DNA from: a virus
Reading direction: 5' to 3' (one strand)
DNA: 42,297 nt
UHGV virus genome: UHGV-1359479
Shown here: piece after piece, positions 1-42,297 of the stretch
Numbering within the stretch: position 1 is the stretch's first letter
How the letters are laid out: each line of letters opens with the position of its first letter
Notes under the pieces: generated by a model
Databases searched by the model: none
Seen by the model: only the letters and a program-made list of their open reading frames with translations
Told to the model about the DNA's origin: nothing
Program-made: the position numbers and the translations under genes

Positions 1-251
1 GGAATGCGGCGGATGTCCACACGCAGGGAAAAGGCCATATAGGCGCCTTTCTGCGGCGGCCCTGCCTGCCAGGTGGTATCCAGGTAGTCGTCAAAACTGA
101 CCCAGCCGTCGGCCTGGGAATCAGTTGTTTCGTCAATATCGGGAATGGCGCCTTTCCTGAGCAGCTGGGGAATTTCAGCCCAGAGCCCGTCCGGCACGGG
201 ATCAATGACGCGAAAGCGCGTAAAACTGCAGGAGGAGTTGAGAAATCCCAT
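1..251 (-). CDS. rdgC: RdgC-like recombination-associated protein, N-terminal part. The gene wraps around the window boundary and its C-terminal part is 41424..42297.
   Basis: The minus-strand ATG at 251..249 is followed by an open frame to position 1, reading MGFLNSSCSFTRFRVIDP...SLRVDIRRI. This resembles the RdgC N-terminus (FKN..YRL-like). Two nt are left over at the edge. Confidence 0.5.
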   Translation of the reverse strand, partial: MGFLNSSCSFTRFRVIDPVPDGLWAEIPQLLRKGAIPDIDETTDSQADGWVSFDDYLDTTWQAGPPQKGAYMAFSLRVDIRRI

Positions 252-253
252 GG

Positions 254-601
254 CTACTCCTTCCCGGTATTACTCTGGGTGCAGTACTTCGCCGCGAACG
301 TCAGAAGTTTCGCGGCCACGGCAGCGAAAGTGTCAACATCGTCCTTGGACAGGCTGGCATGGTGCTCCTTCAGGAAGTCCATAGCCTTATATATCATGTA
401 GGCCGCGAACTGATTGGAAGTGACGGTCTCCCGTTTCTCCACCAAATCCCACACGGCGCCAACGCAATTATCGAACATAAACCCTGCGCTGACATCCCTG
501 CCTGTCGTGGCGTACTGCTCCTCGTCAGCCATGACACAGAAGAAACGGCCATCCGCGCCGTTCTTGTAGGCCACAACCTTTTGATAGATGTCGTTTATCA
601 T
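254..601 (-). CDS. hypothetical protein, 115 aa, in the leftward early operon
   Basis: ORF in the same orientation as its neighbours, with an ATGA overlap onto the upstream gene. Confidence 0.5.
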   Translation of the reverse strand: MINDIYQKVVAYKNGADGRFFCVMADEEQYATTGRDVSAGFMFDNCVGAVWDLVEKRETVTSNQFAAYMIYKAMDFLKEHHASLSKDDVDTFAAVAAKLLTFAAKYCTQSNTGKE

Positions 602-912
602 CAGTTTTTCTCCCCGTCTGGTTTCGGTTCGCCGCAGAAGGCGAAAGAATTTTTCGCCGCGGCCATGGCGGTCAGCACGATGTCTTCATCTTCATCCGTG
701 AGCCGGTGTTCCTGCTGGACAAAGTAGAGCAGCGTCCAGAGTATCCAGCGCATGGCGTCTTCGGGTGTCTTCCCGTAGGCGCGCGTGAAGCGGTACGCCC
801 TGCCGATGGCCCCCTCGAGCGTGCTCAGGAGAGACGGATCCGATGGAGAGACCACGGTCTCCGTCACCCTGTCTCCGTGTGATAAAAAATCTGCGACTTC
901 ATTAAAGTTCAT
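601..912 (-). CDS. hypothetical protein. The likely start is MNFNEV at 912; the longest ORF runs to 957.
   Basis: A GGAGAAAAAT RBS sits immediately upstream of the ATG at 912 on the minus strand. Confidence 0.5.
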   Translation of the reverse strand: MNFNEVADFLSHGDRVTETVVSPSDPSLLSTLEGAIGRAYRFTRAYGKTPEDAMRWILWTLLYFVQQEHRLTDEDEDIVLTAMAAAKNSFAFCGEPKPDGEKN

Positions 913-930
913 ATTTTTCTCCAACATAGA

Positions 931-951
931 GGCGGGGCTCATCACCCCGCC
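931..951 (-). repeat. 21-bp perfect palindromic hairpin GGCGGGGCTCATCACCCCGCC, copy 1, intercistronic
   Basis: A 7-bp GC stem with a 7-nt loop. It lies 9-10 nt upstream, in the minus-strand sense, of a GGAGAAAAA-ATG RBS and start. An identical copy is at 3218-3238. Confidence 0.6.
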
Positions 952-963
952 TGTCATTCATTC

Positions 964-4440: not shown

Positions 4441-5067
4441 TTATTTTGGACGCCCATCATAAAAATCCTGCAGGGCTCCGTCCCATACGCTCGTCGCTGA
4501 TCCCTGCGTCGTTAAGCACATCATCTCCATCTGGCCAAGCATACGATTTGCGGTTTCTCTTATCGCAGGGGGAAAGACTTCATCGTTCTCGCAAAAATAA
4601 TCAGGATGGTTCTCAACGAGGTATTCAATGCGAAAACTTTCTAGTTGATCATCTGCACGAGAATCATCATGGAATATTGTCGAATCATTAATAAGGCTAT
4701 TGTGGAGTTTTTCTTCTTTATTTCTTAAATAGTTTCTTCCAAAAATGATATATTCAAAATAGCTTTTTGCGTCATTTACAAAGTAAGAATCGATATACGG
4801 CATTTTGTATTTATTTAATGTATTTATTATTTTCTTTTTATAAATTTTCCACCAATAAAAATGACGCAGTAATTCTACAATAATTGCATTAGTTATTACA
4901 TATGAAAACACTATTTCTATAGAAAACAGAAGTATATGATATGCATCATCTGTGTGCGGCAAAATTCTAAAGTAGCTAAAGCAAAAAGAGACCAATAATA
5001 TACTAAATACTGGACCTAATAATATGCTGGCCAATAATCTTAGTGACGAAAACTTAGGCATAAACAC
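4441..5067 (-). CDS. AT-rich membrane protein, 208 aa, with two N-terminal TM helices and a roughly 140-aa soluble domain. It sits in the rexAB position downstream of cI and is a candidate superinfection-exclusion or abortive-infection protein.
   Basis: Markedly lower GC than the genome. It is co-oriented with the CI repressor and immediately downstream of it, and it has its own terminator. It shows no recognisable catalytic motif. Confidence 0.6.
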   Translation of the reverse strand: MFMPKFSSLRLLASILLGPVFSILLVSFCFSYFRILPHTDDAYHILLFSIEIVFSYVITNAIIVELLRHFYWWKIYKKKIINTLNKYKMPYIDSYFVNDAKSYFEYIIFGRNYLRNKEEKLHNSLINDSTIFHDDSRADDQLESFRIEYLVENHPDYFCENDEVFPPAIRETANRMLGQMEMMCLTTQGSATSVWDGALQDFYDGRPK

Positions 5068-5082: not shown

Positions 5083-5715
5083 TCACACCGTCTGCAACAC
5101 CCACACGACCTGCCCGAGAACTGTTTTCTCCTGCTCGGCTGGATTGACCCGGACGGGCTTGTATTTCGGATTATCCGAGCACAGCAGAAGGTCCCCGTCT
5201 TCAGACAGTTTCAGTCGCTTCACGACCCGGCCAAAATACGGAATGGACACCAAATAAATTCCACCCTCTGTGACATCCTCGGAGAGCGGTGCAATGCCAA
5301 CGATCGCCCCGTCCTTAATCGTCGGCTCCATCGAATTCCCCCGGACAGTCAAAGCCACCATATCATTTCTGTAAAACTGGGGAAGAATTCGGATGACGGT
5401 GTCAGCTGTACCGTACAGCTCCTGCGGAGCCCCTGCTCCAGTCTCACCCATAAGGGGAACGGCCGGCAGGGTGTCCTTTGCGCTGGAGATGTTCTTTTCT
5501 CCTCCAGGCCCATAAAAATTTTCAACGCCGAGAGCGTCGGCAATAGCACCAACATTGTCCAGGGACGGCGATTTGGTTGTTCCGTTGATTATCTGGCTGA
5601 GTGAGCTCTGACGGATGCCGGCCTGCTCGGCGAAAGCTGACTGCCACCCACGTTCCTGACTCCGCTGCTTTAGAAGTTGGAAAAATCGGTCTTTGAATTT
5701 CATTTTGGCCTCCAT
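5083..5715 (-). CDS. CI-like repressor with an N-terminal XRE HTH and a C-terminal LexA/S24 autopeptidase. The start may instead be MKFKD at 5703.
   Basis: The HTH segment is QIINGTTKSPSLDNVGAIADALG. The S24 motif is GNSMEPTI, with Lys in VKRLK. Confidence 0.8.
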   Translation of the reverse strand: MEAKMKFKDRFFQLLKQRSQERGWQSAFAEQAGIRQSSLSQIINGTTKSPSLDNVGAIADALGVENFYGPGGEKNISSAKDTLPAVPLMGETGAGAPQELYGTADTVIRILPQFYRNDMVALTVRGNSMEPTIKDGAIVGIAPLSEDVTEGGIYLVSIPYFGRVVKRLKLSEDGDLLLCSDNPKYKPVRVNPAEQEKTVLGQVVWVLQTV

Positions 5716-5802: not shown

Positions 5803-6030
5803 ATGGATGAAAAAACGCTAAGAGAAGCTCTTCGGGTGATGCTCGACAGTGGAGCCACTCAGCAGGAAATCGCCGACAAGGCCGGGCTATCCCAGAACTG
5901 CATCAGCCGGTTCCTGCACGGCACTAACGACATCTCGCTCTCGAGGGGTTTGAGATTAATGAAAGTTGTCTTGGAAGAACAAACGAAAAGTGTGGAGCCT
6001 CCGCCCAAGGAGGACTGCGATGCCCAGTGA
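5803..6030 (+). CDS. Cro-like HTH regulator, 75 aa
   Basis: The HTH segment is QQEIADKAGLSQNCISRFLHG. It is divergent from the CI-like repressor. Confidence 0.7.
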   Translation: MDEKTLREALRVMLDSGATQQEIADKAGLSQNCISRFLHGTNDISLSRGLRLMKVVLEEQTKSVEPPPKEDCDAQ

Positions 6031-6143: not shown

Positions 6144-6350
6144 ATGACCGATGACTACGAGATAGTCGACGTCTGGGAGTGTCTTGCGCCGCTCTCCATC
6201 TACGAGCGGGGCCTTGTCGTCACGGCAATAGCTGCGGTGGTGAACGGGAAGACGATGCCCCGTCTCACTGACGGAGCTGCGGAGGCCCTCGGGAAGATGT
6301 TCCCAGATGAGGATTTCTCGCAATATGTGGATAGAGGGAGGTTGCAATGA
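6144..6350 (+). CDS. hypothetical protein, 68 aa, in the cII position
   Basis: ORF with an ATGA overlap onto the following replication gene. Confidence 0.4.
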   Translation: MTDDYEIVDVWECLAPLSIYERGLVVTAIAAVVNGKTMPRLTDGAAEALGKMFPDEDFSQYVDRGRLQ

Positions 6351-7414
6351 AGCAGTGGTTCAAGCTGACGGATTCAGCCGTCATGAGTCTCAAGTGGCAG
6401 CGCATCGCCCGGAAGCTGGGTGTGTCTCCGGCCGTCGTGAGCTTCGTCTATGTGGCGGCCATGTCGAACGCATCCCAGTGCAATGACAGGGGGAGCCTGC
6501 AGGACTTCGACCCGGAAGACGTAGACTTCTACGGAAACTTCGAGGACGGGACCACATCCCGAGTCATAGATGCGCTTACAGCTGCCGGATTCATCGAGGA
6601 TGGCCGGATTGCTGGCTGGGAGGAGAGCCAGAGCCGCCCTTCTCAGGAAGAGGCGGACAGGATTCGCCTCCAGGCAGCGGAGCGCAAACGCCGTCAGAGG
6701 GCGAAGGAGCAGCCGGCTGAACAGCCCAGAGATGGTGACGCCGATGTCTGTGATGATGAGCCATGTCACGCTGTGTCCCACGATGTCACGCCATGTCACA
6801 CAACGTCACACCATGTCACGCCATGTCACGCTGTGTCCCACGATGTCACGCATACAGATCAGATCAGATCAGATCAGAACAGAACAGAAGATCTAAAACA
6901 CACCCCCCTTACCCCCCAGGGGGAGCAGGGTGTGGGTGAGGGAACTGCCGAGGATTGCTCTGACGTTCCCATGGCCGAGAGACGCCCCGTGAATACCGGT
7001 CTTCCCTCGAGGGGAGCTAATGCTTCGTGGTGGAGGGAGTTCGCCTCACTCTGGGATATCTGGCCTAACAAGCAGGGCAAGGATGCGGCATGGGCCGTGT
7101 ATCACGATCTGCGGCGCCGAAAAATCGACATGCCTCCCTTGTACGTCTTGCGTGACAAAGCATCGGCGATGATAGCCCAGGACCGGAAGTTTCTCGCAGG
7201 TTACGTTCCGGAGCTCAAGACATGGCTCAGGGAGCACCGATGGCACGATGAACCATGCCCTCCGAGGGACGTAGCCGTTCCCGGCAGAGGCAGAACCTCC
7301 AGAGAGCAGCAGATGGCCACAGATGTGGAGAGAGCGGCCGAGGCTGCCCGGCGGTTCGAGGATTTTTTTGAGATGGCCACTGATGAACCGGCGGCTGAAG
7401 GAGTGTTTGCATGA
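6347..7414 (+). CDS. replication initiator / replisome organiser A (lambda O-like), with internal iterons
   Basis: Its N-terminal domain is homologous to the paralogue at 9269..10321. Tandem DNA repeats inside the ORF encode a PCHAVSHDVT repeat. Confidence 0.65.
   Translation: MKQWFKLTDSAVMSLKWQRIARKLGVSPAVVSFVYVAAMSNASQCNDRGSLQDFDPEDVDFYGNFEDGTTSRVIDALTAAGFIEDGRIAGWEESQSRPSQEEADRIRLQAAERKRRQRAKEQPAEQPRDGDADVCDDEPCHAVSHDVTPCHTTSHHVTPCHAVSHDVTHTDQIRSDQNRTEDLKHTPLTPQGEQGVGEGTAEDCSDVPMAERRPVNTGLPSRGANASWWREFASLWDIWPNKQGKDAAWAVYHDLRRRKIDMPPLYVLRDKASAMIAQDRKFLAGYVPELKTWLREHRWHDEPCPPRDVAVPGRGRTSREQQMATDVERAAEAARRFEDFFEMATDEPAAEGVFA
6762..6850. repeat. iteron array A, about seven copies of (C/G)ATGTCACGC-like 10-11-mers
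   Basis: Direct repeats seen in the sequence, inside the initiator gene. Confidence 0.7.
6857..6893. repeat. cluster of five GATC sites within AGATC x4 and AGAAC x2 pentamer repeats, adjacent to the iterons
   Basis: The sequence reads CAGATCAGATCAGATCAGATCAGAACAGAACAGAAGATCT. Confidence 0.7.
6898..6942. repeat. conserved C6-TTA-C6-A-G5 element downstream of iteron array A
   Basis: The sequence ACACCCCCCTTACCCCCCAGGGGGAGCAGGGTGTGGGTGAGG is nearly identical at 9806-9848, although the flanking sequence has diverged. Confidence 0.55.
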
Positions 7415-7938
7415 GTGACGAGCAAACGAGAAAGACTTACGCAATCAGGGGCATGCTGGACGCCCTTGGGCGCAACATCAGTGTGGCAGGACTGAGCCTG
7501 TGGAGCATCGTCCTGCGGGACATCCCAGCGACGGTGGTAGAGCAGGGAGTCGTGCATTATCTCTCCTCGAGCGAGTCCGAGTATGCGACGCCGTCGAAGT
7601 TTAGGCAGTTTCTGCTGCGTATGCAGGGCAGGGGCATCCCCGACACCAAGGCCGCTGCTGCCCTGGAGTGGGAAAAGCTCATCAAGGCCATCACGGACTA
7701 CGGCTCGTACAACTGCCCTGAGCTCCCCGAAGCGACGGCCCGTGTCGTTGAGTCCATGGGCGGATGGGGAGCCGTTTGCCAGTGGACGACCCCGCAGCTC
7801 GAGTTCAAGAGACGCGAGTTCGTGGAGGCGTGGAGGGCCATCAGGGACTCCGAGGCGGAAGAGACAACAGCTCTGCCTGGTTCAACCTGCAGCACCGCCA
7901 TTCCCCGCCGCGGAGGTGAAGCATGCCTGCCTCGCTGA
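7411..7938 (+). CDS. hypothetical replication-module protein, 175 aa
   Basis: Translationally coupled between the initiator and SSB. Confidence 0.45.
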   Translation: MSDEQTRKTYAIRGMLDALGRNISVAGLSLWSIVLRDIPATVVEQGVVHYLSSSESEYATPSKFRQFLLRMQGRGIPDTKAAAALEWEKLIKAITDYGSYNCPELPEATARVVESMGGWGAVCQWTTPQLEFKRREFVEAWRAIRDSEAEETTALPGSTCSTAIPRRGGEACLPR

Positions 7939-8324
7939 ATGCTGTGCATCTCATCGGCCGACTCGGGCGCGACCCCGAGGCCTTCCACATTGGCCAGGAC
8001 ACCCTTGCCCGCTTCAACATCGCGACCGACGACGGCTACAAGTCATCTGATGGGCAGAGGGTCGAGCGAGTGACCTGGCACACCGTCACAGCCCACGGGG
8101 CCACGGCTAACTTTTGCCTCAAGTACCTTCATAAGGGCGAGCTCGTGTACGTGCAGGGGGCGTACATCTCTCGGAAGTACCGGACAAAGGACGGGAGAGA
8201 TGCCGTCGCATGGGGCGTGTCAGCATCGCGCGTGCAGTTCCTCGACGGCTCCGAACGGGGAGCCCAGAATCGGAACTGTCATGACCACCAGCAGGGAGGA
8301 TACGACGATGACTGGAGGAACTAA
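7923..8324 (+). CDS. ssb: single-stranded DNA-binding protein, copy 1
   Basis: Has an OB-fold SSB pattern (LIGRLGRDPE, ERVTWH, LHKGELVYVQG) and an acidic C-terminal tail ending DDDW. Confidence 0.8.
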   Translation: MPASLNAVHLIGRLGRDPEAFHIGQDTLARFNIATDDGYKSSDGQRVERVTWHTVTAHGATANFCLKYLHKGELVYVQGAYISRKYRTKDGRDAVAWGVSASRVQFLDGSERGAQNRNCHDHQQGGYDDDWRN

Positions 8325-8962: not shown

Positions 8963-9285
8963 GTGACGAGCACGGAAGCTTCATTATGTATACCGAGTCA
9001 TGGAGTGGCATACAGCTCCTGTCAAGGGAACAGCGGGGGGGGGACCTTCTCACTGCTCTGATGGTGTTCCATGGCGCCGATGACTGCGAGATGCCGGAGA
9101 TGGATCAGGCCACGGCATGTATCTTCGAGATGGTAAAGCGGAAAAACTCTTCATCCTGTTCACGGGACGAGAGAGTCCGCGAGCAGACGCGCGAACGCGT
9201 TCGTCGGTTCAGGGCAAGGAAGAAGGCGGCCGCCGCAGGGACATCAGAGACCATGGAGGAGGCGCATCATGCCGATGGCGTATAG
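8959..9285 (+). CDS. hypothetical protein, 108 aa, containing a G9 homopolymer at 9035-9043
   Basis: ORF overlapping the upstream gene by 4 nt (ATGA). The G9 tract encodes RGG. Confidence 0.4.
   Translation: MSDEHGSFIMYTESWSGIQLLSREQRGGDLLTALMVFHGADDCEMPEMDQATACIFEMVKRKNSSSCSRDERVREQTRERVRRFRARKKAAAAGTSETMEEAHHADGV
9035..9043 (+). repeat. G9 homopolymer inside the 8959..9285 ORF
   Basis: Seen in the sequence. Confidence 0.9.
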
Positions 9286-10321
9286 CTGGTTCCGAGTCTA
9301 CACAGGGACAGTAAATGACAAAAAATGGCCACGCATTGCCCGAGATGCTGGTCAGCCTGTCGGGTGTGTCGTGTCCGTGTGGCTGGCTCTTCTGGAGAGT
9401 GCATCATCTAATATAGATCGTGGGGCAGTTGACGACTTCTGCCCTGAGGATATCGACGCCCTCTACGGGTACGATGATGGCACGACGGAGAGCATCGTAC
9501 ATGCGATGCGAGACAGGGGGCTTATCTCTCCAGAGAACCGTCTGACTGCATGGGACAAGCGTCAGAATATCCCCACGGAAGATGCCCCCGAGGACCGCAG
9601 GGCATACAAGAGGGAGTGGGCCCGCAGGAAGAGAGAGGAGAGCCGGATGGCTGATTCTCCTGCTAGTGGACAGCCTGTAGACAGCTGTAGACAGCCTGTA
9701 GACAGCTGTGGACAGCCTGTAGACAGCTGTAGACAGCCTGTAGACAGCTGTAGACACGATAAAGAGAAGATAAGAGAAGATAAGATAAGAGAAGATAATA
9801 TAAATACACCCCCCTTATCCCCCCAGGGGGAAACGGGTGTGGGTGAAGCACCTTCTCCCAAAACTTCTTCCCCAAAAGAAGAAACCCCTAAGACCGGGGA
9901 AGAACCCCAGGCCGAAGACCCGGCACAAGACGTGAAGCCGAATCTCACTCACGGCAACCCCTGCTGGAAGGAGTTCTGCTACGTCTTTTCTCTCTGGCCC
10001 GTACAACAGGGCAAGGAGAAGGCGTGGAGGGAGTACGCCTACCTCAGGGCACGTCACCTCGTCCCTGAGTCCTACGCCCTTGCGGAGATCATCGAGCGCT
10101 TCAAGGCCGAGGATCGACGATGGAAGCGCGGCTACGTGCCAATGATGGCCAACTGGCTCCACGACCGGAGATGGGACGACGTACCGGAGAAAGCGCCGGC
10201 AAAGAGCTACGCCCCGGATGAGAACGGGTCCACGCCCTACGTGGACGAGCATGACCAAGATTACACGTCTTCGGGCTTTGGTTCGATTTTTGACTCGTTG
10301 AAGGAGAAAGCAAATGCGTAA
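9269..10321 (+). CDS. replication initiator / replisome organiser B, a paralogue of 6347..7414, with its own iterons
   Basis: Homologous N- and C-terminal segments. Internal tandem repeats encode QPVDSCR repeats. Confidence 0.65.
   Translation: MPMAYSWFRVYTGTVNDKKWPRIARDAGQPVGCVVSVWLALLESASSNIDRGAVDDFCPEDIDALYGYDDGTTESIVHAMRDRGLISPENRLTAWDKRQNIPTEDAPEDRRAYKREWARRKREESRMADSPASGQPVDSCRQPVDSCGQPVDSCRQPVDSCRHDKEKIREDKIREDNINTPPLSPQGETGVGEAPSPKTSSPKEETPKTGEEPQAEDPAQDVKPNLTHGNPCWKEFCYVFSLWPVQQGKEKAWREYAYLRARHLVPESYALAEIIERFKAEDRRWKRGYVPMMANWLHDRRWDDVPEKAPAKSYAPDENGSTPYVDEHDQDYTSSGFGSIFDSLKEKANA
9668..9756. repeat. iteron array B, four copies of a roughly 21-bp CAGCCTGTAGACAGCTGTAGA unit
   Basis: Direct repeats seen in the sequence, inside the gene. 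Confidence 0.7.
9757..9805. repeat. A-rich AGATAAGAGA-type short repeats (possible DNA-unwinding element), followed by the conserved C-tract element at 9806-9848
   Basis: The sequence reads GATAAAGAGAAGATAAGAGAAGATAAGATAAGAGAAGATAATATAAAT. Confidence 0.5.
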
Positions 10322-11108
10322 AATGGAAGCCCTTTTCCGGGCAAAGGATATGCGCCCGGCTATATGCCAGAGGCACGGAGAGTACATCTCGTACCTCCTC
10401 CCCTGCCAGCACAAAGAAATCTGGAGCCGGTGCCCCGAGTGTGAGAAAGAGCTTCAGCTCGAGAAGGATCTCCACGAAGAAGCCAACGCCCGCGCCGAGA
10501 TTGCTGCATGGCGCATTGAGCAGCTCATGGGTCAGGCCTGTATCCCGCCGAGATTCGCGAACCGGAGCTTTGAGAATTTCCGCACAGACGAGGACGACCA
10601 AAAAATGGCCCTCCGCGCATGCATGAGCTACGCCGTGACCGGATGGGAAGACACGATGAAAACCGGCCGGAGCCTCTGCATCCTCGGCCGCCCCGGTACA
10701 GGGAAAACGCACCTCGCCGCCGCGATGGTGCGATCCGTCATCAGCCGGGGGTTCCCCGCCGTGTACGTCAGGGAGGCGGACATCTTCCGCCGCATCAAGG
10801 AGACGTACATGTCGCGGACTGTGAGCGAACGGCAGGCCATGGCCGATTTCGTGAAGCCGGCCCTGCTCGTGATTGACGAGGTTGGCAGGCAGTACGGCAC
10901 GCCTGCGGAGCGCTTCATGTTTTTTGACGTCATTGACAGACGCTACGAGAACATGAAGCCAACGATTCTCATCTCGAACCTGGACAAGACCCATTTCCGC
11001 GAGCTGCTTGGCCTCTCTCTCTTCTCGCGCCTCGCAGAGGGCGGAGGGCAGCTTCTCGTCCTTGCTGGCAAGGATATGAGACTGGAGGCCAGTCATGGCG
11101 TCGCTTAA
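10314..11108 (+). CDS. DnaC/IstB-like AAA+ helicase loader with an N-terminal Cys-rich zinc ribbon
   Basis: Walker A is GRPGTGKTHLAAAM and Walker B is LLVIDEVG. Confidence 0.8.
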   Translation: MRKMEALFRAKDMRPAICQRHGEYISYLLPCQHKEIWSRCPECEKELQLEKDLHEEANARAEIAAWRIEQLMGQACIPPRFANRSFENFRTDEDDQKMALRACMSYAVTGWEDTMKTGRSLCILGRPGTGKTHLAAAMVRSVISRGFPAVYVREADIFRRIKETYMSRTVSERQAMADFVKPALLVIDEVGRQYGTPAERFMFFDVIDRRYENMKPTILISNLDKTHFRELLGLSLFSRLAEGGGQLLVLAGKDMRLEASHGVA

Positions 11109-11499
11109 CAACGTCACCCTCATCGGCCTCCTCGGTCGTGACCCTGAGGAGGTGCATGCAGGACAGAGCCGCTTCGCACGCCTCTCCGTGGCCACGGATG
11201 ACGGATACCGTGACCAGAACGGCCAGAAGGTGGAGCGTACCACCTGGCACTCCGTGGCTGTGAGCGGGAAGACGGCGGATTTCGTGCTCAGGTATCTGCA
11301 CAAGGGAAGTCAGGTCCTCGTGGAGGGCCGGTATCTGTCACGTAAGTACCAGACCAAGGACGGCCGAGACGCCGTGTCCTGGTACGTGCAGGCGCAGCGG
11401 GTGCAGTCCCTCGACTCCGCCCACCACGACGGACAGCAGGGCCAGAGACAGCAGGGGCACCAGCAGGGAGGCGGTTACGATGAGTCGTGGAAGTACTAG
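11095..11499 (+). CDS. ssb: single-stranded DNA-binding protein, copy 2
   Basis: Paralogue of 7923..8324, with an acidic C-terminal tail. Confidence 0.8.
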   Translation: MASLNNVTLIGLLGRDPEEVHAGQSRFARLSVATDDGYRDQNGQKVERTTWHSVAVSGKTADFVLRYLHKGSQVLVEGRYLSRKYQTKDGRDAVSWYVQAQRVQSLDSAHHDGQQGQRQQGHQQGGGYDESWKY

Positions 11500-11878
11500 C
11501 GGGAAGGCCCCCACCCCCACCGAGCACGAGGAGCAGGCCGCTCTCATCACATGGTGGAACATGTACGCTCAGGCGCGGCATATGCCGAACTTCCTGCTTA
11601 TGGCCATCCCCAACGGCGGCCACCGCACGACAGTGACAGGCGCAAGGCTCCATGCCGAGGGTGTGAGGGCCGGTATCCCAGACCTCTTCCTCGCTGTCGC
11701 CAGTGGGGAGTGGCACGGCCTCTGGATCGAAATGAAGCGCCGGAGAGGTGGCTTCCTGTCCGACCATCAGAGAACGGCTCTTCTGGCCCTGAAGCTCGAG
11801 GGATACTCCACGGCCGTATGCTACGGCTGGGATGAGGCCAGAGAAGCCATCGTAGATTATCTGGGGGACGAGAGATGA
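11480..11878 (+). CDS. VRR-NUC domain nuclease
   Basis: Shows TEHEEQAALI...IPNGG...GIPDL...IEMK...Q, the VRR-NUC signature. Confidence 0.65.
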   Translation: MSRGSTSGKAPTPTEHEEQAALITWWNMYAQARHMPNFLLMAIPNGGHRTTVTGARLHAEGVRAGIPDLFLAVASGEWHGLWIEMKRRRGGFLSDHQRTALLALKLEGYSTAVCYGWDEAREAIVDYLGDER

Positions 11879-12144
11879 TAAGCCGATCAAAAATCTGGAC
11901 TCCGGTGGCTGATATGATGCTCGCCGCTCTCTGTCTGTCGGGGACGCCGGCCTGCGACATCGCCAGAGCGCTGAACCGCTCCGAGAAGGAGTGCCGCAGG
12001 CGGGCGAAGGAACTCGGCACGGCAATGCCGCCCAAACCCAAGCCTTACAGCCCCTCTTTTACCTCCGACGAGGAAGACACGTTTCTCCCCGGGAGGGAAG
12101 ACTTCGCCGATGACCTGACGGAGGTGCTGCATGTGGACGCCTGA
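11875..12144 (+). CDS. GcrA-like HTH domain protein, small
   Basis: Has a W...G..IA..L.RS..EC.RRA..LG motif. Confidence 0.45.
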   Translation: MISRSKIWTPVADMMLAALCLSGTPACDIARALNRSEKECRRRAKELGTAMPPKPKPYSPSFTSDEEDTFLPGREDFADDLTEVLHVDA

Positions 12145-12706
12145 CCGTGACGCCGAGCTGCGCAGGATCGGAGTGGAGACGTATATCAGCCGGCACCCCG
12201 GAGCTGACGTGCACGAGGTGCTGGACCGCTACCTGCTCCTCCTTGACCCCGAGGGACGCGCCGCCCTGCTCAGGGAGAAGAACCGGGCCATCGAGACGGG
12301 GAAGTGGACGCCGCCGCGCCGGAAAACGGGGCCCAAGCCAGCCCCTCCCTGTCCCCCGAAGCCAGGCACAGTGCCGGCTGCCATCCGTACCGACAGTCCC
12401 CAGTGGCCGGCAGATACCGTCGAGAGACTAAAGACGATGCGCGCCAGAGGACTGACGGCCGCTGAGATCGCCGTCATCCTGGGGAAAACCGAGCCGGCCG
12501 TGGCCATGAAATGCGCCAAGCTCCATATCCCTTCCGCCGCTGGCCTTACGGCACAGGCATGGACTATGGAGCAGGTCCAGAGTCTTCGCGGCATGTACGG
12601 GCGGGGCTTCACGGCCCCGCAGATAGCGAAAGCCATGGGCCGGACGGTCAAATCTGTCTACGGAATGATGTACAGGCTCGGGCTTTCCAGAGACAGGAAG
12701 AGATGA
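12131..12706 (+). CDS. GcrA-like DNA-binding regulator with repeated W..L..G.TA.EIA..LG... modules
   Basis: WTMEQVQSLRGMYGRGFTAPQIAKAMGRTVKSVYGMMYRLGL matches the GcrA N-terminal domain. Two further degenerate copies are present. Confidence 0.55.
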   Translation: MWTPDRDAELRRIGVETYISRHPGADVHEVLDRYLLLLDPEGRAALLREKNRAIETGKWTPPRRKTGPKPAPPCPPKPGTVPAAIRTDSPQWPADTVERLKTMRARGLTAAEIAVILGKTEPAVAMKCAKLHIPSAAGLTAQAWTMEQVQSLRGMYGRGFTAPQIAKAMGRTVKSVYGMMYRLGLSRDRKR

Positions 12707-13393: not shown

Positions 13394-13670
13394 CATTATC
13401 ACTGTCATGAGGACGGTTACTGATCTGGGGGCTAGTGAGTGTGATCTGTTGGTGGCGCTGGCCGACCGCGTGAAGGCCGCGGAGAATAAGCATCCCGACT
13501 TCTCCGATGGGATATACCAGGGAGTAGGTGTCATCGGCGAAGAGTACGGGGAGCTTTGTCAGGCGCTGAACAAAAATCAGGGGGAGGAGCGTGTCATGGA
13601 TGAGGCGCTTGACCTGCTCTGTGTCGTCTGGCGCTTCTGCCGGGGAGACTGGAGGCAGAAGAAGTGCTGA
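13386..13670 (+). CDS. MazG-like all-alpha nucleotide pyrophosphohydrolase (small)
   Basis: Paired EE..GEL and E..DEALDLL motifs. Confidence 0.4.
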   Translation: MNSIITVMRTVTDLGASECDLLVALADRVKAAENKHPDFSDGIYQGVGVIGEEYGELCQALNKNQGEERVMDEALDLLCVVWRFCRGDWRQKKC

Positions 13671-14512: not shown

Positions 14513-14800
14513 TTGTTTTTTTTCTTTGCGTTATTTTTGGGCTGTTGCATAATTCTTGGCATTGGAGGTGTTAATATGCTTAGCATTATTCTTGGTTTTG
14601 TGTTTTTTTGTTTGGTTGTTTGGTGTTTTTTCGCGTTGGCTGCGTGTGGATTCCTTCAGATAATAGTGTATGCTGCCTCTTTCCTGATCGGGCTCGGGAT
14701 TCTTGCTTTTGCCAACACTGGATTACTTACGTCAATACTGGGTCTTGCCTTTATTGTGATCCCGAACTGGATTGCTAGTAATTATTTCTCCGACAACTAG
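14513..14800 (+). CDS. AT-rich small hydrophobic membrane protein (holin/antiholin-like or moron)
   Basis: Predicted to have about 3 TM segments. It lies in a low-GC island. Confidence 0.4.
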   Translation: MFFFFALFLGCCIILGIGGVNMLSIILGFVFFCLVVWCFFALAACGFLQIIVYAASFLIGLGILAFANTGLLTSILGLAFIVIPNWIASNYFSDN

Positions 14801-19490: not shown

Positions 19491-19491
19491 T

Positions 19492-25419: not shown

Positions 25420-25429
25420 GAGAACAACA

Positions 25430-26016: not shown

Positions 26017-26251
26017 TCACCTTCTGCTCCTCGAAGTTCACGAGGTAGTCGACCGTTCCGGTCCCCCCGCGGTACTCGATGCACCGGACCTCATAGTAGT
26101 CGGGAACCTCCAGCTTATGTACGCTGACGACCTTTGCACAGAGGTTTCCGGTCAGATTAATGAACAAGCGAAGAGCTTTGTCTGCGTCGTCCTCAGCAAA
26201 GGCCATAGATGGCAATGCCAGGAGGATGAGAGAGATGATGATTTTTTTCAT
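26006..26251 (-). CDS. small secreted protein (signal peptide MKKIIISLILLALPSMAFA), encoded antisense within the tail operon; a moron
   Basis: Lower GC than its surroundings. It has an N-terminal signal peptide and is the only reverse-strand gene in the late region. Confidence 0.55.
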   Translation of the reverse strand: MKKIIISLILLALPSMAFAEDDADKALRLFINLTGNLCAKVVSVHKLEVPDYYEVRCIEYRGGTGTVDYLVNFEEQKVIKR

Positions 26252-26278
26252 AGGCTACTCCTTAAAAGCTGAGGTGAA

Positions 26279-37583: not shown

Positions 37584-39395
37584 ATGGCGGCGGATTTCGC
37601 GAAACCGAATCTTGGTAACAAAATAAAAACAGACGTCCCGGGTATTTTTGATATTCTCCAGACACTTGCCACAGGCGCGCTGTCCGGGACGATAAACACC
37701 CCAACCGGTGCGCTTAATTTTTATGTAGACGGCAACAATAACTTAAAAATCCAGAGACTGGACGCTAGCGGGGCGTGGGTAGATATACCCCAGCTCAAAA
37801 ATGATGCAGATACGGTAGACGGATACCACGCTTCCACCAGCACCACCAAGAGCACAATCCCCGTCAGGGACAGCAACGGCAATCTTCCAGGCTCCATCAC
37901 GGGTAACGCGCCCACGGCCACCAAGGCGCAGCAGCTTACGGATGTAAACCCCGTAGCCATGGGCGGAACGGGAGCGTCCACGGCCGCTGACGCACGAACG
38001 AACCTTGGCGTGCCGCCTATCAGCCACGCGTCCGTAGCCACCACCTATGGCGTCTCCACAGATAAGGCCTATGGCCACGCGAAGGCTACGGGCACGACGC
38101 CCAAAAAAGACAGTCTGGCAGGAACAGTGGGGAACGAGACGTCCACCTTCGCCCGAGGGGATCATCAGCATCCCCGTGCAGTCTTCTTCGGGACATGCAC
38201 GACGGCACTCGATACGCCCGCCAAGGTAGTATCCATCCCCGACTTCATTCCGTCTGAAGGGGCCTTCGCCCTCATCAGGTACATCCCCGAGGCCACCCGC
38301 ACGGTGACGACCAAGGCGGAAGACGGCACAGAGACGACTTCCACTCTGACGCTGAAGGCGACATCAGACCCGCTCACGCTCTCGGTGAATGCCGGGACAG
38401 CGCTCCCCATCCGGACATCCGGAGGGCAGGTCATCGGCACGGAGCTTATCTCCGGAGGCACGTATCTTTTTGTGTACGCGGGGGACGCGTACCTCTACGC
38501 AGGAGGAACCAAGCTCGCGAATGAACCGGCTGGGGCAGTTCTCTCCGATCTGACGAAGGGGACTGCTCCGGATACGCTACGGGCGCCATCCATCGCCGTG
38601 TACGACAAGACCGGAGCGGAGATCGGAACGCTGACCCTCAAAGTCGGCACAGATAACTCCACATCCCTGTCCCTAAACGTCCACCCCGGCACCGAGGCCG
38701 GCTCCCCCACACAGACTGGCACGATCGAGGTCGGCTACGACGCCTCCGGTTCAGTGTACACAGCGGCCCCGACCCCTGCCACGCAAGACAAATCTACGAA
38801 GATCGCCACCACCGAGTATGTCAATGACAACGCCTGCATGCTATACGGCGATCAGACCATCGCCGGAGCCAAAACTTACGCGTCCCCGCTGACCTGCACG
38901 GATCTCATCTCGGGAAAAAGACTCACCCTTAACAACGGCGTAAACAGCAACCTGGATTTCTGCGCTAACAACGTGACTTCCGGCGGCGCTTATCTTGCAG
39001 GCAGTTCCATGGCCAGTAATACATGGAAACAGATTGCCCTGCTGGAGGATGCTGAGTCCGTGGCCACATCGAAAGCCGCGGCATGGTCGCGCGACAGACA
39101 GATGGCTCCGGACGGAACCAAGTGGGGCTTCGATTCGGATACGACCTACACGGCGCCGAATAACGGATTTATCAGGATCGAGGACGTGAATCGGCATAAT
39201 ACCGTGAACACCTATGTGCTGAACATCAATGGCGGCGTAGCGATGCGCGTTACAGCGTCAGGGTATGGATCGGGCGGCCAGCATGGCGGGATCGACGTGT
39301 GCTACCCCATACGTGGCGGATGGACGTACAGCGTATGGCGCGAAGCTGGTGACAGCTGGCCTAACTGTATGGAGTTTATTCGATGCTACTTCTAG
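37584..39395 (+). CDS. tail fibre protein, 603 aa
   Basis: Thr/Gly/Ala-rich beta-structure repeats in the fibre locus, upstream of the assembly chaperone. Confidence 0.7.
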   Translation: MAADFAKPNLGNKIKTDVPGIFDILQTLATGALSGTINTPTGALNFYVDGNNNLKIQRLDASGAWVDIPQLKNDADTVDGYHASTSTTKSTIPVRDSNGNLPGSITGNAPTATKAQQLTDVNPVAMGGTGASTAADARTNLGVPPISHASVATTYGVSTDKAYGHAKATGTTPKKDSLAGTVGNETSTFARGDHQHPRAVFFGTCTTALDTPAKVVSIPDFIPSEGAFALIRYIPEATRTVTTKAEDGTETTSTLTLKATSDPLTLSVNAGTALPIRTSGGQVIGTELISGGTYLFVYAGDAYLYAGGTKLANEPAGAVLSDLTKGTAPDTLRAPSIAVYDKTGAEIGTLTLKVGTDNSTSLSLNVHPGTEAGSPTQTGTIEVGYDASGSVYTAAPTPATQDKSTKIATTEYVNDNACMLYGDQTIAGAKTYASPLTCTDLISGKRLTLNNGVNSNLDFCANNVTSGGAYLAGSSMASNTWKQIALLEDAESVATSKAAAWSRDRQMAPDGTKWGFDSDTTYTAPNNGFIRIEDVNRHNTVNTYVLNINGGVAMRVTASGYGSGGQHGGIDVCYPIRGGWTYSVWREAGDSWPNCMEFIRCYF

Positions 39396-39859
39396 CTGCC
39401 GGCTGTCCGGCCACCGGGAAAAGCCACTACGCACGCATACTCCTTTCTGGGATCAGGGTTATCGAGTTCGACGAGTGGGCATGCATGTGGTACGGCGTTC
39501 CATTCGTTGATGCTATGGACAAGTATTCTGCTGAATATCCTAAAAGTCAGCATGAATATTTCAATGAGATAGGTATCCAATACCTACAATATGGAGATAT
39601 TGTTGTGTGTGATACATTCACATACAGGAAAGACAGGTTAGATTTTTTGGAATACATGAATGCAAAATTCAATATTCCAAAGAATAAAATATGTATTAAA
39701 TATCTAGTTTCGGCATATCCTTTGATAAAAAAGCGCAATCAGGAACGTAAAACTGTCCTTCCAGAGAATGTTCTTCTCACAATGTACTACAATCAGCAGT
39801 ACCCCGTCGCCGATGAAGGCTTCGGTAAAGTGGAGATAGTATCAAATGAGTATCAATAA
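39383..39859 (+). CDS. T4 Pnk-like polynucleotide 5'-kinase domain protein (P-loop only, no phosphatase domain); AT-rich moron
   Basis: Walker A is GCPATGKSH, against T4 Pnk GCPGSGKST. IVVCDTFTYRKDRLDF matches VIISDTNLNPERRLAW, and LPENVLLTMY matches VPIDVLRSMY. Confidence 0.55.
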   Translation: MLLLAAGCPATGKSHYARILLSGIRVIEFDEWACMWYGVPFVDAMDKYSAEYPKSQHEYFNEIGIQYLQYGDIVVCDTFTYRKDRLDFLEYMNAKFNIPKNKICIKYLVSAYPLIKKRNQERKTVLPENVLLTMYYNQQYPVADEGFGKVEIVSNEYQ

Positions 39860-40325
39860 CATTCAGGATATGGAATCCGCGGCGGAGTCTTATCCGGCCG
39901 CGATGTTCGCTCATGACACGGTCTACCTGAAGATCATGAGTGACGGCACTGTCCGGGCTCTCGCCGATAAAGCCACGGTGAATGCTCCTGTAGAGTACGG
40001 CGGGGGCGGCGGCTCATACGATATGGAAATATCTACAGAAACATGGAAGGAAAGCGAATATACCGCCCGCGTCCGCAACGGGAAAATCGTCCTCGGGAAG
40101 ACTCAGGATGAGAAGCAGTCAGAGTGGGAAGCGGCCATCAGGGCGGAGCGGGATCGCCGTCTCCGCCTGTGCGACAAGATGTCCCCCATGCGCTGGAACG
40201 TCCTTACAGAGGAAGAGCGCGCTACGTGGGCGGCGTATCGTCAGGCGCTTCTCGATATCCCCGAGCAGGACGGGTTCCCGTGGGGCGGGGTGGTGGATAG
40301 CGCGCCATGGCCGGAGATCCCGTAA
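39846..40325 (+). CDS. tail fibre assembly chaperone (Caudo_TAP-like)
   Basis: The C-terminal pattern is RATWAAYRQALLDIPEQDGFPWGGVVDSAPWPEIP. Confidence 0.6.
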   Translation: MSINNIQDMESAAESYPAAMFAHDTVYLKIMSDGTVRALADKATVNAPVEYGGGGGSYDMEISTETWKESEYTARVRNGKIVLGKTQDEKQSEWEAAIRAERDRRLRLCDKMSPMRWNVLTEEERATWAAYRQALLDIPEQDGFPWGGVVDSAPWPEIP

Positions 40326-40333
40326 AACATAAA

Positions 40334-40364
40334 AGCCCTTTGGGGTATCCCAATGGGCTTTTTT
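40334..40364 (+). terminator. rho-independent terminator of the rightward late transcript
   Basis: The hairpin GCCCTTTGGGG..CCCAATGGGC is followed by T6. Confidence 0.6.
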
Positions 40365-40403
40365 ATAAAAAATTCCCCGGCAGAAGTGCGTGACCTCTGC
40401 CGG
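40365..40403 (-). terminator. rho-independent terminator of the leftward transcript, convergent with the plus-strand terminator
   Basis: A hairpin with an 8-bp stem, CCGGCAGA/TCTGCCGG (40377-40403), is followed on the minus strand by a U-rich run. Confidence 0.5.
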
Positions 40404-40470
40404 GCTGTGCGGCGGTCTCTCCGGTCTGCACCTGACGCTTGGTGCATCGTGGTGCAAAATTTTGTTTAAG

Positions 40471-40680
40471 TTACTGAATTAATTTAAAAGTCCATGCTCC
40501 ACTGCGGATGAGGGCCGCCGCACTCTCAGCAGATATCGTTTTTCTGCGGACAGGTCTACGGGTGGCAGTCACCTCGAGGATGTCGTCCTGCCTGGCTTCG
40601 AGGCGTTCAATGGCCTTCTTGTGCTCGATAATCTCCAACCGGATTTTCCGCAGCTCGGTAATTTCACTCACTCCGTCCAT
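40471..40680 (-). CDS. hypothetical small protein, ~69 aa, with an internal start of a longer ORF
   Basis: The start is coupled to the upstream gene stop. Confidence 0.35.
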   Translation of the reverse strand: MDGVSEITELRKIRLEIIEHKKAIERLEARQDDILEVTATRRPVRRKTISAESAAALIRSGAWTFKLIQ

Positions 40681-41174
40681 ATGCCCTCCAGTTTCGGATT
40701 CTTCCTTGGCGAGGCGTGGCAGTGCCAGATGCGGGCGGCTTCTTCGGCCTCTGCCTGATGGGTCAGGTAGAGACGGTCCGAGGTGAGGCCGATGATATGC
40801 TTCACCTTCAGCCAGAGCTCCGGCCTCTTCTTCCATGACCCTCCGTAGTAGAGGGCATCGGCGTAGGCCTCATCCCCAAGGAACCACATCACGCACCACG
40901 CGGAGTAGGCCTCGACCCGCGTCTGGCTGTGCGCGGCGTCATAAGCATCTATGGCGTCGGCGGCCGCCTCACACGCGGCCTTCATGTCACGGCGCTCTCC
41001 AGCGGTGAAGGCTCCGACCTCCAGAAGTCCCTGTATCTCCATGAGGGCCTTCTGCACCTCGATGAGGCGGGCCGGCTTCTTCTTCCAGTCTGGATACTTC
41101 TCGAGGGCGACAAGCGGGAAAGACACGCCTATGCAGCAGTCGCGGTGAGCGATGGAGTTACCTGGGCATCTCAT
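40668..41174 (-). CDS. hypothetical protein, 168 aa
   Basis: ORF in the leftward operon. Confidence 0.45.
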   Translation of the reverse strand: MRCPGNSIAHRDCCIGVSFPLVALEKYPDWKKKPARLIEVQKALMEIQGLLEVGAFTAGERRDMKAACEAAADAIDAYDAAHSQTRVEAYSAWCVMWFLGDEAYADALYYGGSWKKRPELWLKVKHIIGLTSDRLYLTHQAEAEEAARIWHCHASPRKNPKLEGIWTE

Positions 41175-41427
41175 CGCGTCCTCCCTGCATCTTCATGGCC
41201 TCAGCTACGAGGGCTGATATGGCCGTCTCCATAGCCTTCCTTGTATCCATCCCCCCTTCGAGGATGGCCATCAGGGCGTGAGTGAAGTTCTGTGCTATCA
41301 GTCTGTAGTCCATCCCTTCCGGTATGTAAGTGAAGACTCTTCCCTCATCCATGGCTATGACAGCCCTCTGCCTTTTCTTGTCGTTGATGTAGGGCCATAC
41401 GGCCCGCGCCAGCTCCTTCGCTGTCAT
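41158..41427 (-). CDS. hypothetical protein, ~89 aa, with an ATGA overlap onto the RdgC-like stop
   Basis: ORF. Confidence 0.4.
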   Translation of the reverse strand: MTAKELARAVWPYINDKKRQRAVIAMDEGRVFTYIPEGMDYRLIAQNFTHALMAILEGGMDTRKAMETAISALVAEAMKMQGGRDEMPR

Positions 41428-42297
41428 GCCAGCACCTCCCCCATCCACTTCATCATCTCACCCGTCGTCTTCTTCCACTTGTCCTCGTCGAGCCGGAGGC
41501 CGAGGAACTGACGGTAGAGGCTGTCCAGGAGGGTAACGGCGGTTTCGATGAGAAAGGCCTTTTCCAGGAAGAGCGCATCCGGATCATCATCACGGTCGGG
41601 TTTGTCAATCTTGGGTGTCTTCAGGCTGTTGAGGGAAAAGTCAGCGGCCTTCACGGAAACATCGAACCCGAAGTCGTCCTTTGTGAGATGGATGAGGGCG
41701 CTGGTGACCTTCTTGCCGCGGCGGAGTCCGAGGCGGGCCTCCAGCAGAGAATCGCCCGGGACCCACGTCGCCATGGACGTGGTTTCCCGATCGGTCCCGC
41801 AAAAGCCGGTCACGGTCACGCGCTTTTCCATGGAAACCTGAAAGGGCTGGGCGTTGCCAGCGCGGAAAAATGTCGAGACGACATCTGACCTGAACCAGAG
41901 CCAGGTGAGGAAGTCTCGTCCCAGGCTTCCGTCGAAGGACTCATCCACTTCGTCGGCGTCGTGGATAGCCTCTTCGGACTCTTTCCCGAGCATGGACAGT
42001 GCCAGATACCTCGGGATTTGCTGCTCAATGTGCAGCTTGAAGGTGGCGAGAAAGCGCTGGACAAAGAGCTCGAGCATTTTTGTCTGCGTGGAGGCGAACC
42101 AGATTTCGTTGTTCTCGGTGTTCCAGATGACGTTGAACTCTCCGGGCACGGGCAGAAAGCGCCTGCGCAGGGAAAGCTGCACCTGTTCCTTCAGTTCTTT
42201 GCGGCGTTCGCGGGAAATGAATTTCTTCCCGTTCTTCTCGTTTTCCGCCTTTTCCCGCTTCAGCGCGAGATCGAGGTACTTGCGGACAACGCCCGCG
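41424..42297 (-). CDS. rdgC: RdgC-like recombination-associated protein, C-terminal part. It is open to the window edge, with no stop upstream of the listed Met.
   Basis: The C-terminal segment DALFLEKAFLIETAVTLLDSLYRQFLGL resembles the RdgC C-terminus. The frame continues to 42297 and joins 251..1. Confidence 0.5.
   Translation of the reverse strand, partial: AGVVRKYLDLALKREKAENEKNGKKFISRERRKELKEQVQLSLRRRFLPVPGEFNVIWNTENNEIWFASTQTKMLELFVQRFLATFKLHIEQQIPRYLALSMLGKESEEAIHDADEVDESFDGSLGRDFLTWLWFRSDVVSTFFRAGNAQPFQVSMEKRVTVTGFCGTDRETTSMATWVPGDSLLEARLGLRRGKKVTSALIHLTKDDFGFDVSVKAADFSLNSLKTPKIDKPDRDDDPDALFLEKAFLIETAVTLLDSLYRQFLGLRLDEDKWKKTTGEMMKWMGEVLA

Follow-up and report, generated by a model that had tools for sequence, protein, structure and literature searches.

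The int/att deletion mutants of phage lambda, among them the b2-type mutants, the int-att deletions and the int-deleted lambda pbio-type phages, keep intact immunity, replication, lysis and morphogenesis functions and have lost the integrase and a functional phage attachment site (attP). We have analyzed the virus genome UHGV-1359479, a sequence of 42,297 bp with 56.9% G+C (the window, meaning the whole stretch of DNA analyzed), which shares these features with the lambda mutants and, like them, has one deletion endpoint at the attachment site. It differs from them in being a natural variant from gut metagenomes, known from its sequence, with a Desulfovibrio host, a deletion bounded by a 5-bp repeat and no host DNA. 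The window is very probably the complete genome of an HK97/lambda-like temperate siphovirus of gut Desulfovibrio and a natural integrase/attP deletion variant of an integrating lineage. The lambda int/att deletion mutants are functionally its closest counterparts, and the integrase-bearing Desulfovibrio prophages are phylogenetically closest. These sister prophages have the same gene order, P'-arm motifs and CI/Cro layout as the window. Each carries an integrase of 326-346 amino acids (aa), either a complete attP or the two prophage junctions attL and attR, and one replication module, whereas the window lacks an integrase, retains half of an attP and possesses both replication modules.

Two further groups of phages invite comparison. 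Phage-plasmids and the cluster A mycobacteriophages combine, like the window, temperate-type regulation with the lack of an integrase. Phage-plasmids of the P1, N15 and SSU5 types have partition systems and/or a protelomerase as well as plasmid replicons, and cluster A mycobacteriophages have parABS in place of the integrase. The window differs from both in that it has no partition system, protelomerase or plasmid replicon, and nothing replaces the lost integrase. In its particle genes the window resembles the HK97-like cos siphoviruses, with which it shares an HNH gene beside TerS and TerL, a portal, an S78 prohead protease, an HK97-fold capsid protein, a lambda-like tape measure and a GpJ-like tip. 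It is set apart from these by a TerL with an intein-like insertion and by the lack of deposited relatives: neither a megablast search with 24 kb of the window nor a tblastn search with its RdgC-like protein gave a match among the 50,697 deposited phage genomes of INPHARED. None of the integrase-bearing Desulfovibrio prophages was found in that collection either, and a paper on Desulfovibrio piger prophages makes no mention of RdgC or HK97 and describes nothing like this phage.

A preliminary description, made from the letters of the window, had proposed that a gene is split in frame across the two ends and that the window is thus a complete circle. This proves correct. The 5' part of the gene, at 1-251 on the minus strand, comprises codons 1-83 and two bases of Pro84; it reads from the ATG at 251 down to position 1 as MGFLNSS...VDIRRI, with 'cc' left over. 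The 3' part, at 41424-42297 on the same strand, supplies the third base of Pro84 and codons 85-374, reading inward from 42297 as a single 'c' and then AGVVRKYL.... Joining the ends therefore gives an unbroken open reading frame (ORF) of 374 aa (251 to 1, then 42297 to 41424) with a proline at the joint. This is not a chance open frame, since over 80 homologues of full length (372-376 aa) are encoded in other assemblies, at 80-94% identity and with 100% coverage. At the nucleotide level one related genome (L001) gives a gap-free alignment of 2,058 bp through the joint, with 86.9% identity, and in another (L004) positions 6309/6310 correspond to window 1/42297, again gap-free, at 87% identity.

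Exact-protein look-ups with three window genes that flank the deletion joint described below returned three further records of the same clone: L092 (ENA ERZ27229688, k119_352610; 42,416 bp, or 42,297 + 119), L093 (JGI 3300045988, Ga0495776_067569; 42,361 bp, or 42,297 + 64) and L106 (ENA ERZ28568400, BRIT16-1_SAMN02333979 scaffold_798; 42,352 bp, or 42,297 + 55). All three are opened at differing points, and each runs through the joint between the window ends. Aligned with the circularised window across this joint, L092 shows 1 mismatch in 20,210 bp, and L093 and L106 are 100% identical over 13,406 bp and 12,480 bp, respectively. The lengths of the 42,416- and 42,352-bp records fit those of circular contigs with terminal overlaps of k = 119 and k = 55. 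No terminal direct repeat is present within the window itself. By these look-ups the clone is seen only as contigs of ~42.3-42.4 kb, never within a larger host contig. The window is thus confirmed, at the assembly level, as a complete, circularly closing phage genome. An HNH gene beside the terminase is linked to cos packaging, and the order HNH-TerS-TerL suggests that the virion DNA has cos ends.

The position at which an integrase would be expected is evident from the relatives. Their gene order is RecT, two small genes, the RdgC-like gene, a gene of 75-89 aa, one of 168-174 aa, one of 69-84 aa, and then the integrase. The block running from RecT through the RdgC-like and 168-aa genes to the 69-aa gene is 79-94% identical between window and relatives, and long stretches at 80-90% identity are common to them. 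A tyrosine integrase (Phage_integrase, 326-346 aa) follows the 69-aa gene in 22 of the 22 informative related loci (L001-L008, L096-L105, L108 and L110-L112). At least four integrase types, mutually 57-68% identical, are found among these loci, all at the same position. Most of the loci are prophages in Desulfovibrio chromosomes, with host genes directly past the integrase, and they occupy at least five sites (a TcpQ/secretin/type II secretion system operon, a glucokinase-side site, a site beside a 505-aa gene, an SLT/autotransporter region and an M23-like gene); L004, L006 and L008 represent the excised (attP) form. At the integrase position the window has a 145-bp spacer (40326-40470). For one of the integrase types, int1, the attR sites (in L001, L096, L102, L104 and L105) fall at no fewer than three chromosomal locations. 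These have in common the core-like sequence ACTGTCCC(N)GGA(A/C)AGGA, which in the attP form lies within the perfect palindrome CTGTCCCGGGACAG.

Homology between the window and its relatives breaks at 40505-40497 and resumes within the spacer, where positions 9223-9309 of L004 match window 40446-40360 at 86% identity. A window-specific 37-mer at the break is absent from IMG/VR; five metagenome contigs contain an exact copy of it, and no more than ~117 bp of each is common to the window. Four of these (L009, L010, L011 and L013) have ordinary Desulfovibrio genes on one side of the shared element and a prophage end on the other, so that the element there represents attL; in L010 this prophage end carries tail-fibre and chaperone genes unrelated to those of the window. 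The fifth contig (L012) has the element directly beside a coupling-protein-like gene that is truncated, which marks a secondary site. When genomes were scanned with the oxidoreductase encoded in the adjoining host DNA, the hosts proved to be uncultured gut and rumen Desulfovibrio species. The empty attachment site attB, with a sequence that includes ...CCCACGTGCATGAAAAGG..., was found in two Desulfovibrio metagenome-assembled genomes (L014 and L015). The target gene encodes a secreted M23-peptidase-like protein of ~300 aa and is interrupted near codon 146. With the N-terminal fragment of this protein the opposite junction, attR, was found in L110, L111 and L112, where the order past the host fragment is a tyrosine integrase of 336 aa (int4), the 69-aa gene and the 168-aa gene of the family.

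The junction sequences are ...GCGGCCCAC GTGCATG AAAAGGCGG... for attB, ...GCGGCCCAC GTGCATG GAGCATGGACTTTT... for attL and ...AACGGGCTCC GTGCATG AAAAGGCGG... for attR. The common core present in all three is the 7-bp sequence GTGCATG, and a 7-bp core is normal for a tyrosine integrase. The left edge of the shared element is sharp, and a transposon end had been considered for it; this is ruled out by the simple 7-bp common core beside a tyrosine integrase. The secondary attL in L012 reads ...CCTCTC GTACATG GAGCATGGAC...; off-site integration is, on the account of one paper (PMC5605937), well documented for phage lambda. The host B' flank had no match in IMG/VR, and the single IMG/VR match to a 19-mer, in L091, is an unrelated AT-rich phage that was discarded as a chance match.

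What the window retains of the attP is a residual P' arm at 40402-40496 on the minus strand. It is ~96% identical overall to the attL at the M23-like gene, and identical to it over ~100 nt to the right of the deletion joint. Candidate arm-type integrase-binding sites are arranged in it as TGCACC-n4-TGCACC-n8-GGTGCAG (40426-40460, minus strand). The pattern TGCACC-N8-GGTGCAG occurs once in the window (40426-40446), with 0.02 occurrences expected by chance. Motifs of the form GGTGCA(G) are found at or just past the 3' end of every integrase type, with inverted copies in the P' arms of the relatives, and they are probably arm-type integrase-binding sites.

Two observations on the attachment site may be added. 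The M23-like target gene adjoins ArdC-N/MPTase-PolyVal, NlpC/P60 and DsbA genes and, in L111, another integrase of 374 aa; because of these neighbours and of the coupling-protein-like gene at the secondary site in L012, the attachment sites may lie in a conjugative element rather than in the core chromosome. In addition, an identical P' arm is present at the same host site in at least three different prophage ends (L009/L013, L010 and L011). The end shared by L009 and L013 carries a low-GC gene of 332 aa, and that of L011 differs again. These different ends with one P' arm point to exchange of the int4/att module among otherwise different phages.

A comparison of these junctions with the window maps the change exactly. 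Left of the deletion joint, the window, L006 and L111 have one identical sequence that extends to ...CATCCGCAGTGGAG, as far as the integrase ribosome-binding site. After CATCCGCAGTGGAG, L006 and L111 go on with GACTGC-ATG, the integrase start, whereas the window goes on with CATGGACTTTT..., which is the attL sequence that follows GTGCATGGAG. The ancestral arrangement, reconstructed from L110, L111, L112 and L010, reads ...CAGTGGAG, then GACTGC, int4 (1,011 bp), a 40-nt P arm and GTGCATGGAG, and then CATGGAC.... The segment from GACTGC through GTGCATGGAG is missing from the window; L110, L111 and L112 agree on its length of 1,067 bp, and copies of TGGAG lie at its boundaries. The sole remaining TGGAG copy, located by alignment and reconstruction at 40497-40501 on the minus strand, is the deletion joint, and the window reads CATCCGCAGTGGAGCATGGAC across it. 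The window therefore differs from the reconstructed ancestor by one clean deletion of 1,067 bp. Lost with it are the spacer of the integrase ribosome-binding site, the integrase gene (336 aa) in full, the P arm of 40 nt and all but two of the seven core bases, so that at the core position the window reads CGCAGTG against GTGCATG (agreement at 2 of 7 positions). Of the two TGGAG copies, the one on the right lies partly in the core and partly in the P' arm. Both the terminators and the P' arm, including its probable integrase-binding sites, have been kept. Of the features of an integrating phage, the CI repressor and a divergent Cro are present, the integrase is absent, and the attP is incomplete, consisting of the P' arm only.

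The 69-aa gene at 40471-40680 (minus strand), whose counterparts in the relatives overlap the integrase start, records the same event. Its last nine codons (GAWTFKLIQ) now come from former P'-arm DNA of the attP, and an exact look-up of the resulting protein returns the window clone alone. Its product is possibly an excisionase-type or regulatory protein.

It might be asked whether this lineage ever had an integrase, the relatives having gained theirs later. Such an order of events can hardly be given any weight: nothing beyond the absence of the gene speaks for it, and it is contradicted by the retained ~100 nt that are identical to the P' arm of an active attachment site. The match to the integrase-upstream sequence of L006 and L111 as far as the ribosome-binding site, and the occurrence of all four integrase types at this one position, also speak against it. 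It might also be asked whether the integrase-free circle is a mis-join made by an assembler, given that all clone records may come from one sample and that the evidence consists of contigs. This too is extremely improbable. Three assemblies (the 'k119_', JGI and scaffold records) show the same joint and the same 42,297-bp unit with different cut points, and the 69-aa ORF stays open across the joint. The parental sequences share only 5 bp there, far less than any assembly k-mer. The joint is biological, because a 5-bp overlap cannot mislead an assembler at k >= 55 and the three assemblies agree.

Two routes to the deletion may be envisaged. It could have arisen by short-repeat illegitimate recombination, or by replication slippage, between the TGGAG copies. 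Alternatively, integrase could have cleaved at the margin of the overlap region and so set off the event; integrase-dependent deletions starting at att are known from classical work on lambda. The position of the right endpoint at the core/P' boundary modestly favours an integrase-provoked event, while a clean secondary-site exchange is made less likely by the poor agreement between the left site and the core. Aberrant excision of the lambda bio/gal type is ruled out, there being no host sequence to the left of the core. Recombination between TGCATGAGCAT at the integrase start and TGCATGGAGCAT in the core was also considered; its predicted product does not match the window. The ancestor would have measured ~43.4 kb, and some contigs with RdgC-like homologues are 42.7-43.5 kb long. 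That the deletion was selected because it relieved an oversized genome after the gain of a second replication module is only speculation.

The deletion left no trace of a recombinase elsewhere. The preliminary description had found no tyrosine or serine recombinase, excisionase or ParAB gene, and had called for family searches for integrase, ParA/ParB and protelomerase; these searches bear it out in every frame. Pfam (E <= 0.01) detected no integrase, resolvase, transposase, ParA/B or telomere-resolvase family in the products of the 67 called genes, and PHROGs and NCBIfam revealed no recombinase among the products left without assignment. The 127 uncalled frames of at least 95 aa contain no recombinase or partition family, their sole Pfam match being DUF1799. 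A hidden Markov model (HMM) built from six integrases of the family gave a best E-value of 0.92 against 840 six-frame segments of the circularised window (positive control: L004, E 2e-208), and no integrase pseudogene fragment is left. An IstB-like protein scores best as a DnaC-type loader and not as a transposase. Nor is the phage Mu-like, as no transposase family is present and the genome ends close on themselves. Within the limits of homology detection, the absence of a recombinase holds.

The lack of an integrase, together with two replication modules, had led the preliminary description to propose a phage-plasmid. Two modules are indeed present, in tandem. Module 1 (6347-8324, plus strand) consists of an initiator (6347-7414), a DUF6475 protein and a single-stranded DNA-binding protein (SSB). 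Module 2 (9269-11878, plus strand) consists of an initiator (9269-10321), a DnaC-like loader, a second SSB and a VRR-NUC protein. Each initiator gene contains an origin-like array of iterons and AT-rich pentamers: nine 10-bp iterons at 6760-6851 followed by (CAGAT)x7 at 6855-6888 in module 1, and eight iterons of ~10.5 bp at 9669-9756 followed by (AAGAT)x8 at 9762-9803 in module 2. As an extrachromosomal prophage, the phage would use one of these modules for lytic and the other for plasmid replication, and its detection only as a separate ~42.3-kb contig agrees with such a state, as do the completeness of both initiator-plus-iteron modules and the possession of an SSB by each. We nevertheless consider a phage-plasmid quite improbable. 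No ParAB, ParM, TubZ, protelomerase or plasmid-type Rep is encoded in any frame, and both initiators, of ~350 aa each, match phage replication-initiation PHROGs. Relatives carry either module alone (module 2 in L001, L008 and L096-L105, module 1 in L002) and are integrase-bearing prophages, most of them integrated. The retained attP remnant, moreover, marks the integrase-free state as the result of a recent deletion and not as a design. Since the relatives carry the modules singly, the window is better explained as a mosaic with both alternative modules, the second as a mosaic extra. The double module is unusual, yet not by itself a sign of plasmid maintenance. A related idea, that the double origin compensates for lost integration, with one module serving the lytic cycle and the other low-copy episomal carriage under CI repression, is likewise highly unlikely; if it were true, the clone would be a formerly integrating prophage on its way to becoming a phage-plasmid without partition functions or a carrier-state element.

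The preliminary description had also offered lysogeny by means of host recombinases. More broadly, lysogeny might be borrowed through host XerC/D acting at a dif-like site, through an integrase that a resident relative supplies in trans, or through homologous recombination, by the phage's RecT/exonuclease or by host RecA, into a resident related prophage. The last of these has some circumstances in its favour. The window has a RecT/exonuclease pair, and its relatives share the long stretches of 80-90% identity described above. Its CI is intact, and the integrase-bearing prophage L002 has a CI 96% identical to it, which shows that homoimmune lysogens exist. One JGI metagenome (3300045988) contains both the clone, as L093, and an integrase-bearing relative (L007). 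Against borrowed lysogeny as a whole, the clone has never been seen inside a host contig or fused to another prophage, and with the core destroyed and the P arm gone there would be no proper substrate on which an integrase could act in trans. A search of the window for an E. coli-type dif site, with up to 3 mismatches allowed, found none; this is a weak test, as the consensus is that of E. coli and the dif of Desulfovibrio may differ. The use of host recombinases in particular does not agree with the presence of an integrase in all 22 relatives at the place of the spacer, nor with its removal from the window in one clean step. On balance we regard borrowed lysogeny as unlikely. Of the third suggestion, a non-integrating pseudolysogen, part survives: such a state is compatible with a deletion mutant, but it would be a derived defect and not a designed strategy. 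By defining features the window is thus neither a phage-plasmid, nor a transposable phage, nor itself an integrating phage; it is a complete HK97/lambda-like genome.

Several points weigh against a natural deletion variant of an integrating lineage. We found no int4-bearing genome that is otherwise identical to the window, the ancestor being built from relatives that are 79-84% identical in the flanking genes. The three clone records are 99.99-100% identical and may stem from one sample assembled three times, and, the data being contigs, a minority genotype that bears the integrase may be present in that same sample. The right endpoint could coincide with the core by chance, with a probability of about a few percent given ~200 bp of dispensable DNA. 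Finally, the lifestyle is deduced from gene content.

The remainder of the genome is that expected of a lambdoid phage. The 67 called genes cover 96.3% of the genome, the largest gap being 247 bp; there are no tRNA genes in the window. According to Pfam, PHROGs and NCBIfam the layout is standard lambdoid. As the preliminary description had it, two transcription units diverge from the CI/Cro region and meet at back-to-back terminators, which we find at 40404-40376 on the minus strand and at 40340-40353 on the plus strand. The former, which ends the leftward (early) operon, has a 12-pair stem and a T run (40376-40404); the latter, with which the rightward (late) operon closes, is a weak hairpin resembling a terminator. 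The leftward operon consists of CI, a low-GC membrane-protein gene, small ORFs, a PD-(D/E)XK exonuclease, RecT, two small genes, the RdgC-like gene, the 89-, 168- and 69-aa genes, and the strong terminator. CI (5083-5715, minus strand) has both the helix-turn-helix (HTH) and the S24 peptidase domain (Pfam E 2e-20 and 3e-16), in agreement with the S24 CI repressor described before. The Cro-like HTH protein is encoded divergently from it at 5803-6030 on the plus strand; it was recognised as a second HTH_3 stretch with weak HTH-family matches (residues 238-287 of pseudo-protein 4, inside the 5803-6030 product). RecT (964-1971) and the exonuclease (1989-2810) occupy 964-2810 on the minus strand, with Pfam matches to RecT (E 6e-42) and DUF3799 (E 4e-25) and gene limits taken from the gene calls on L092.

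The gene that spans the window ends lies in this operon. The joined peptide had been said to align over its whole length to the RdgC family, and this is upheld at the level of the predicted fold, the match of the window protein to Pfam RdgC (PF04381) being sub-threshold (19.7 bits against 25, E 5.6e-4) and confined to a single stretch, aa 69-167, that spans the joint residue. In PHROGs the protein matches 'exonuclease recombination-associated' (E 3e-5). All 18 of the aligned homologues match RdgC in Pfam and no other family at E <= 0.01 (best 3.7e-8), and homologues at ~50% identity bear a precomputed PF04381 assignment. A profile of the RdgC-like family found no match among PDB sequences. The fold search used the AlphaFold model of a protein (P0001) that is 94% identical to the window protein (predicted local distance difference test, pLDDT, 70; predicted template modelling score, pTM, 0.70). 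With this model Foldseek returned the RdgC structures of E. coli (2OWL) and P. aeruginosa (2OWY) at E-values from 2e-9 to 7e-8, with probability 1.00, ~360 aligned columns and a TM-score of 0.53-0.63 normalised to the target; the next-best match reached only E 3e-3. The protein is thus predicted to be RdgC-like across its whole length. Compared with bacterial RdgC (2OWL, 2OWY, PF04381), the predicted fold is alike over the ~360 columns, whereas the window-family protein shows ~14% identity, is 374 aa long as against about 300 aa, and is encoded in a phage early operon beside RecT and the exonuclease. Directly 3' of it on the minus strand lie the conserved 89-aa gene (41158-41427), which is syntenic in all relatives, and the conserved 168-aa gene (40668-41174), which is likewise syntenic and 82-90% identical in relatives; the product of the latter has no family match in Pfam, PHROGs or NCBIfam.

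In the rightward operon Cro is followed by the two replication modules and then by a GcrA-like protein, a Dam methylase and Lar, a lysis cassette (GH108 endolysin, LysC/Rz1 and holin), and the packaging and head module at 16713-22611 on the plus strand, which encodes the HNH endonuclease, TerS, TerL, the portal, the S78 protease and the HK97-type major capsid protein. The operon ends with connectors, tail tube, tape measure, a 1,656-aa GpJ-like protein, fibres and the tail-fibre assembly chaperone (39846-40325, plus strand; Pfam Phage_tail_APC, E 3e-16), the last late gene, which lies beside the former attP.

A few individual genes deserve comment. The TerL protein has a 139-aa insertion at aa 66-204 (17697-18113) that splits the Walker A motif (GRKNGK / insert / T). 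The insertion begins with GLSLDT, contains DHRW and LFLCG, and ends with THN, followed by T; it has no Pfam match even at E <= 10. When it is removed in silico, the TerL_ATPase match becomes contiguous (profile positions 1-175, E 9e-21, as against 47-175, E 1.3e-15). The insertion resembles a class-3 mini-intein. Directly 3' of CI, on the same strand (4441-5067, minus), a 208-aa predicted membrane protein is encoded by a gene with a G+C content of ~34%, against 57% for the genome; it has no family match in the three databases, and relatives have a gene of ~202-206 aa in the same place. It is a candidate moron or superinfection-exclusion gene. Two other low-GC genes are a 95-aa hydrophobic ORF 3' of the Dam methylase gene (14513-14800, plus strand) and, between the tail fibre and its chaperone (39383-39859, plus strand), a gene for a 158-aa AAA_33/PSTK-like P-loop kinase-like protein. 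One early block combines a protein with a GcrA-like cell-cycle regulator domain (12131-12706) and a D12-class adenine methyltransferase (13664-14488); alphaproteobacteria are the group from which GcrA is mainly known. At 25352-26272, in the tail-chaperone (G/GT-like) region, the gene calls are unreliable, and the DUF1799 tail-chaperone match among the uncalled frames suggests the usual frameshifted chaperone pair.

The modules for infection, immunity, replication, lysis and particle assembly are all present and open. Because they look intact, the phage should still infect, replicate, set CI immunity and build particles. It would be unable to insert itself by site-specific recombination and may therefore spread mainly by lytic growth and form abortive or unstable lysogens. 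By analogy with the lambda int/att mutants, it would be expected to form plaques and to lysogenize abortively unless a helper prophage is present. Homologous recombination into a related resident prophage is a plausible route of rescue.

In viromics surveys, genomes that have a repressor and lack an integrase are often labelled as unusual temperate phages, phage-plasmids or pseudolysogens. Such calls can be settled from sequence: here the relatives and the recovery of attB, attL and attR lead back to a recent deletion of 1,067 bp in an ordinary integrating lineage. The explanation is an ordinary one, and the result is tidy for specialists and no surprise. Its by-products are a fully mapped attachment system, with the core GTGCATG and one primary and one secondary site, for an uncultured family of phages of gut Desulfovibrio, and a counterpart in nature to the lambda int/att deletion mutants of classical genetics. 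The phage is presumably unable to form stable lysogens alone, which could be of relevance if phages were to be used against sulfate-reducing gut bacteria.

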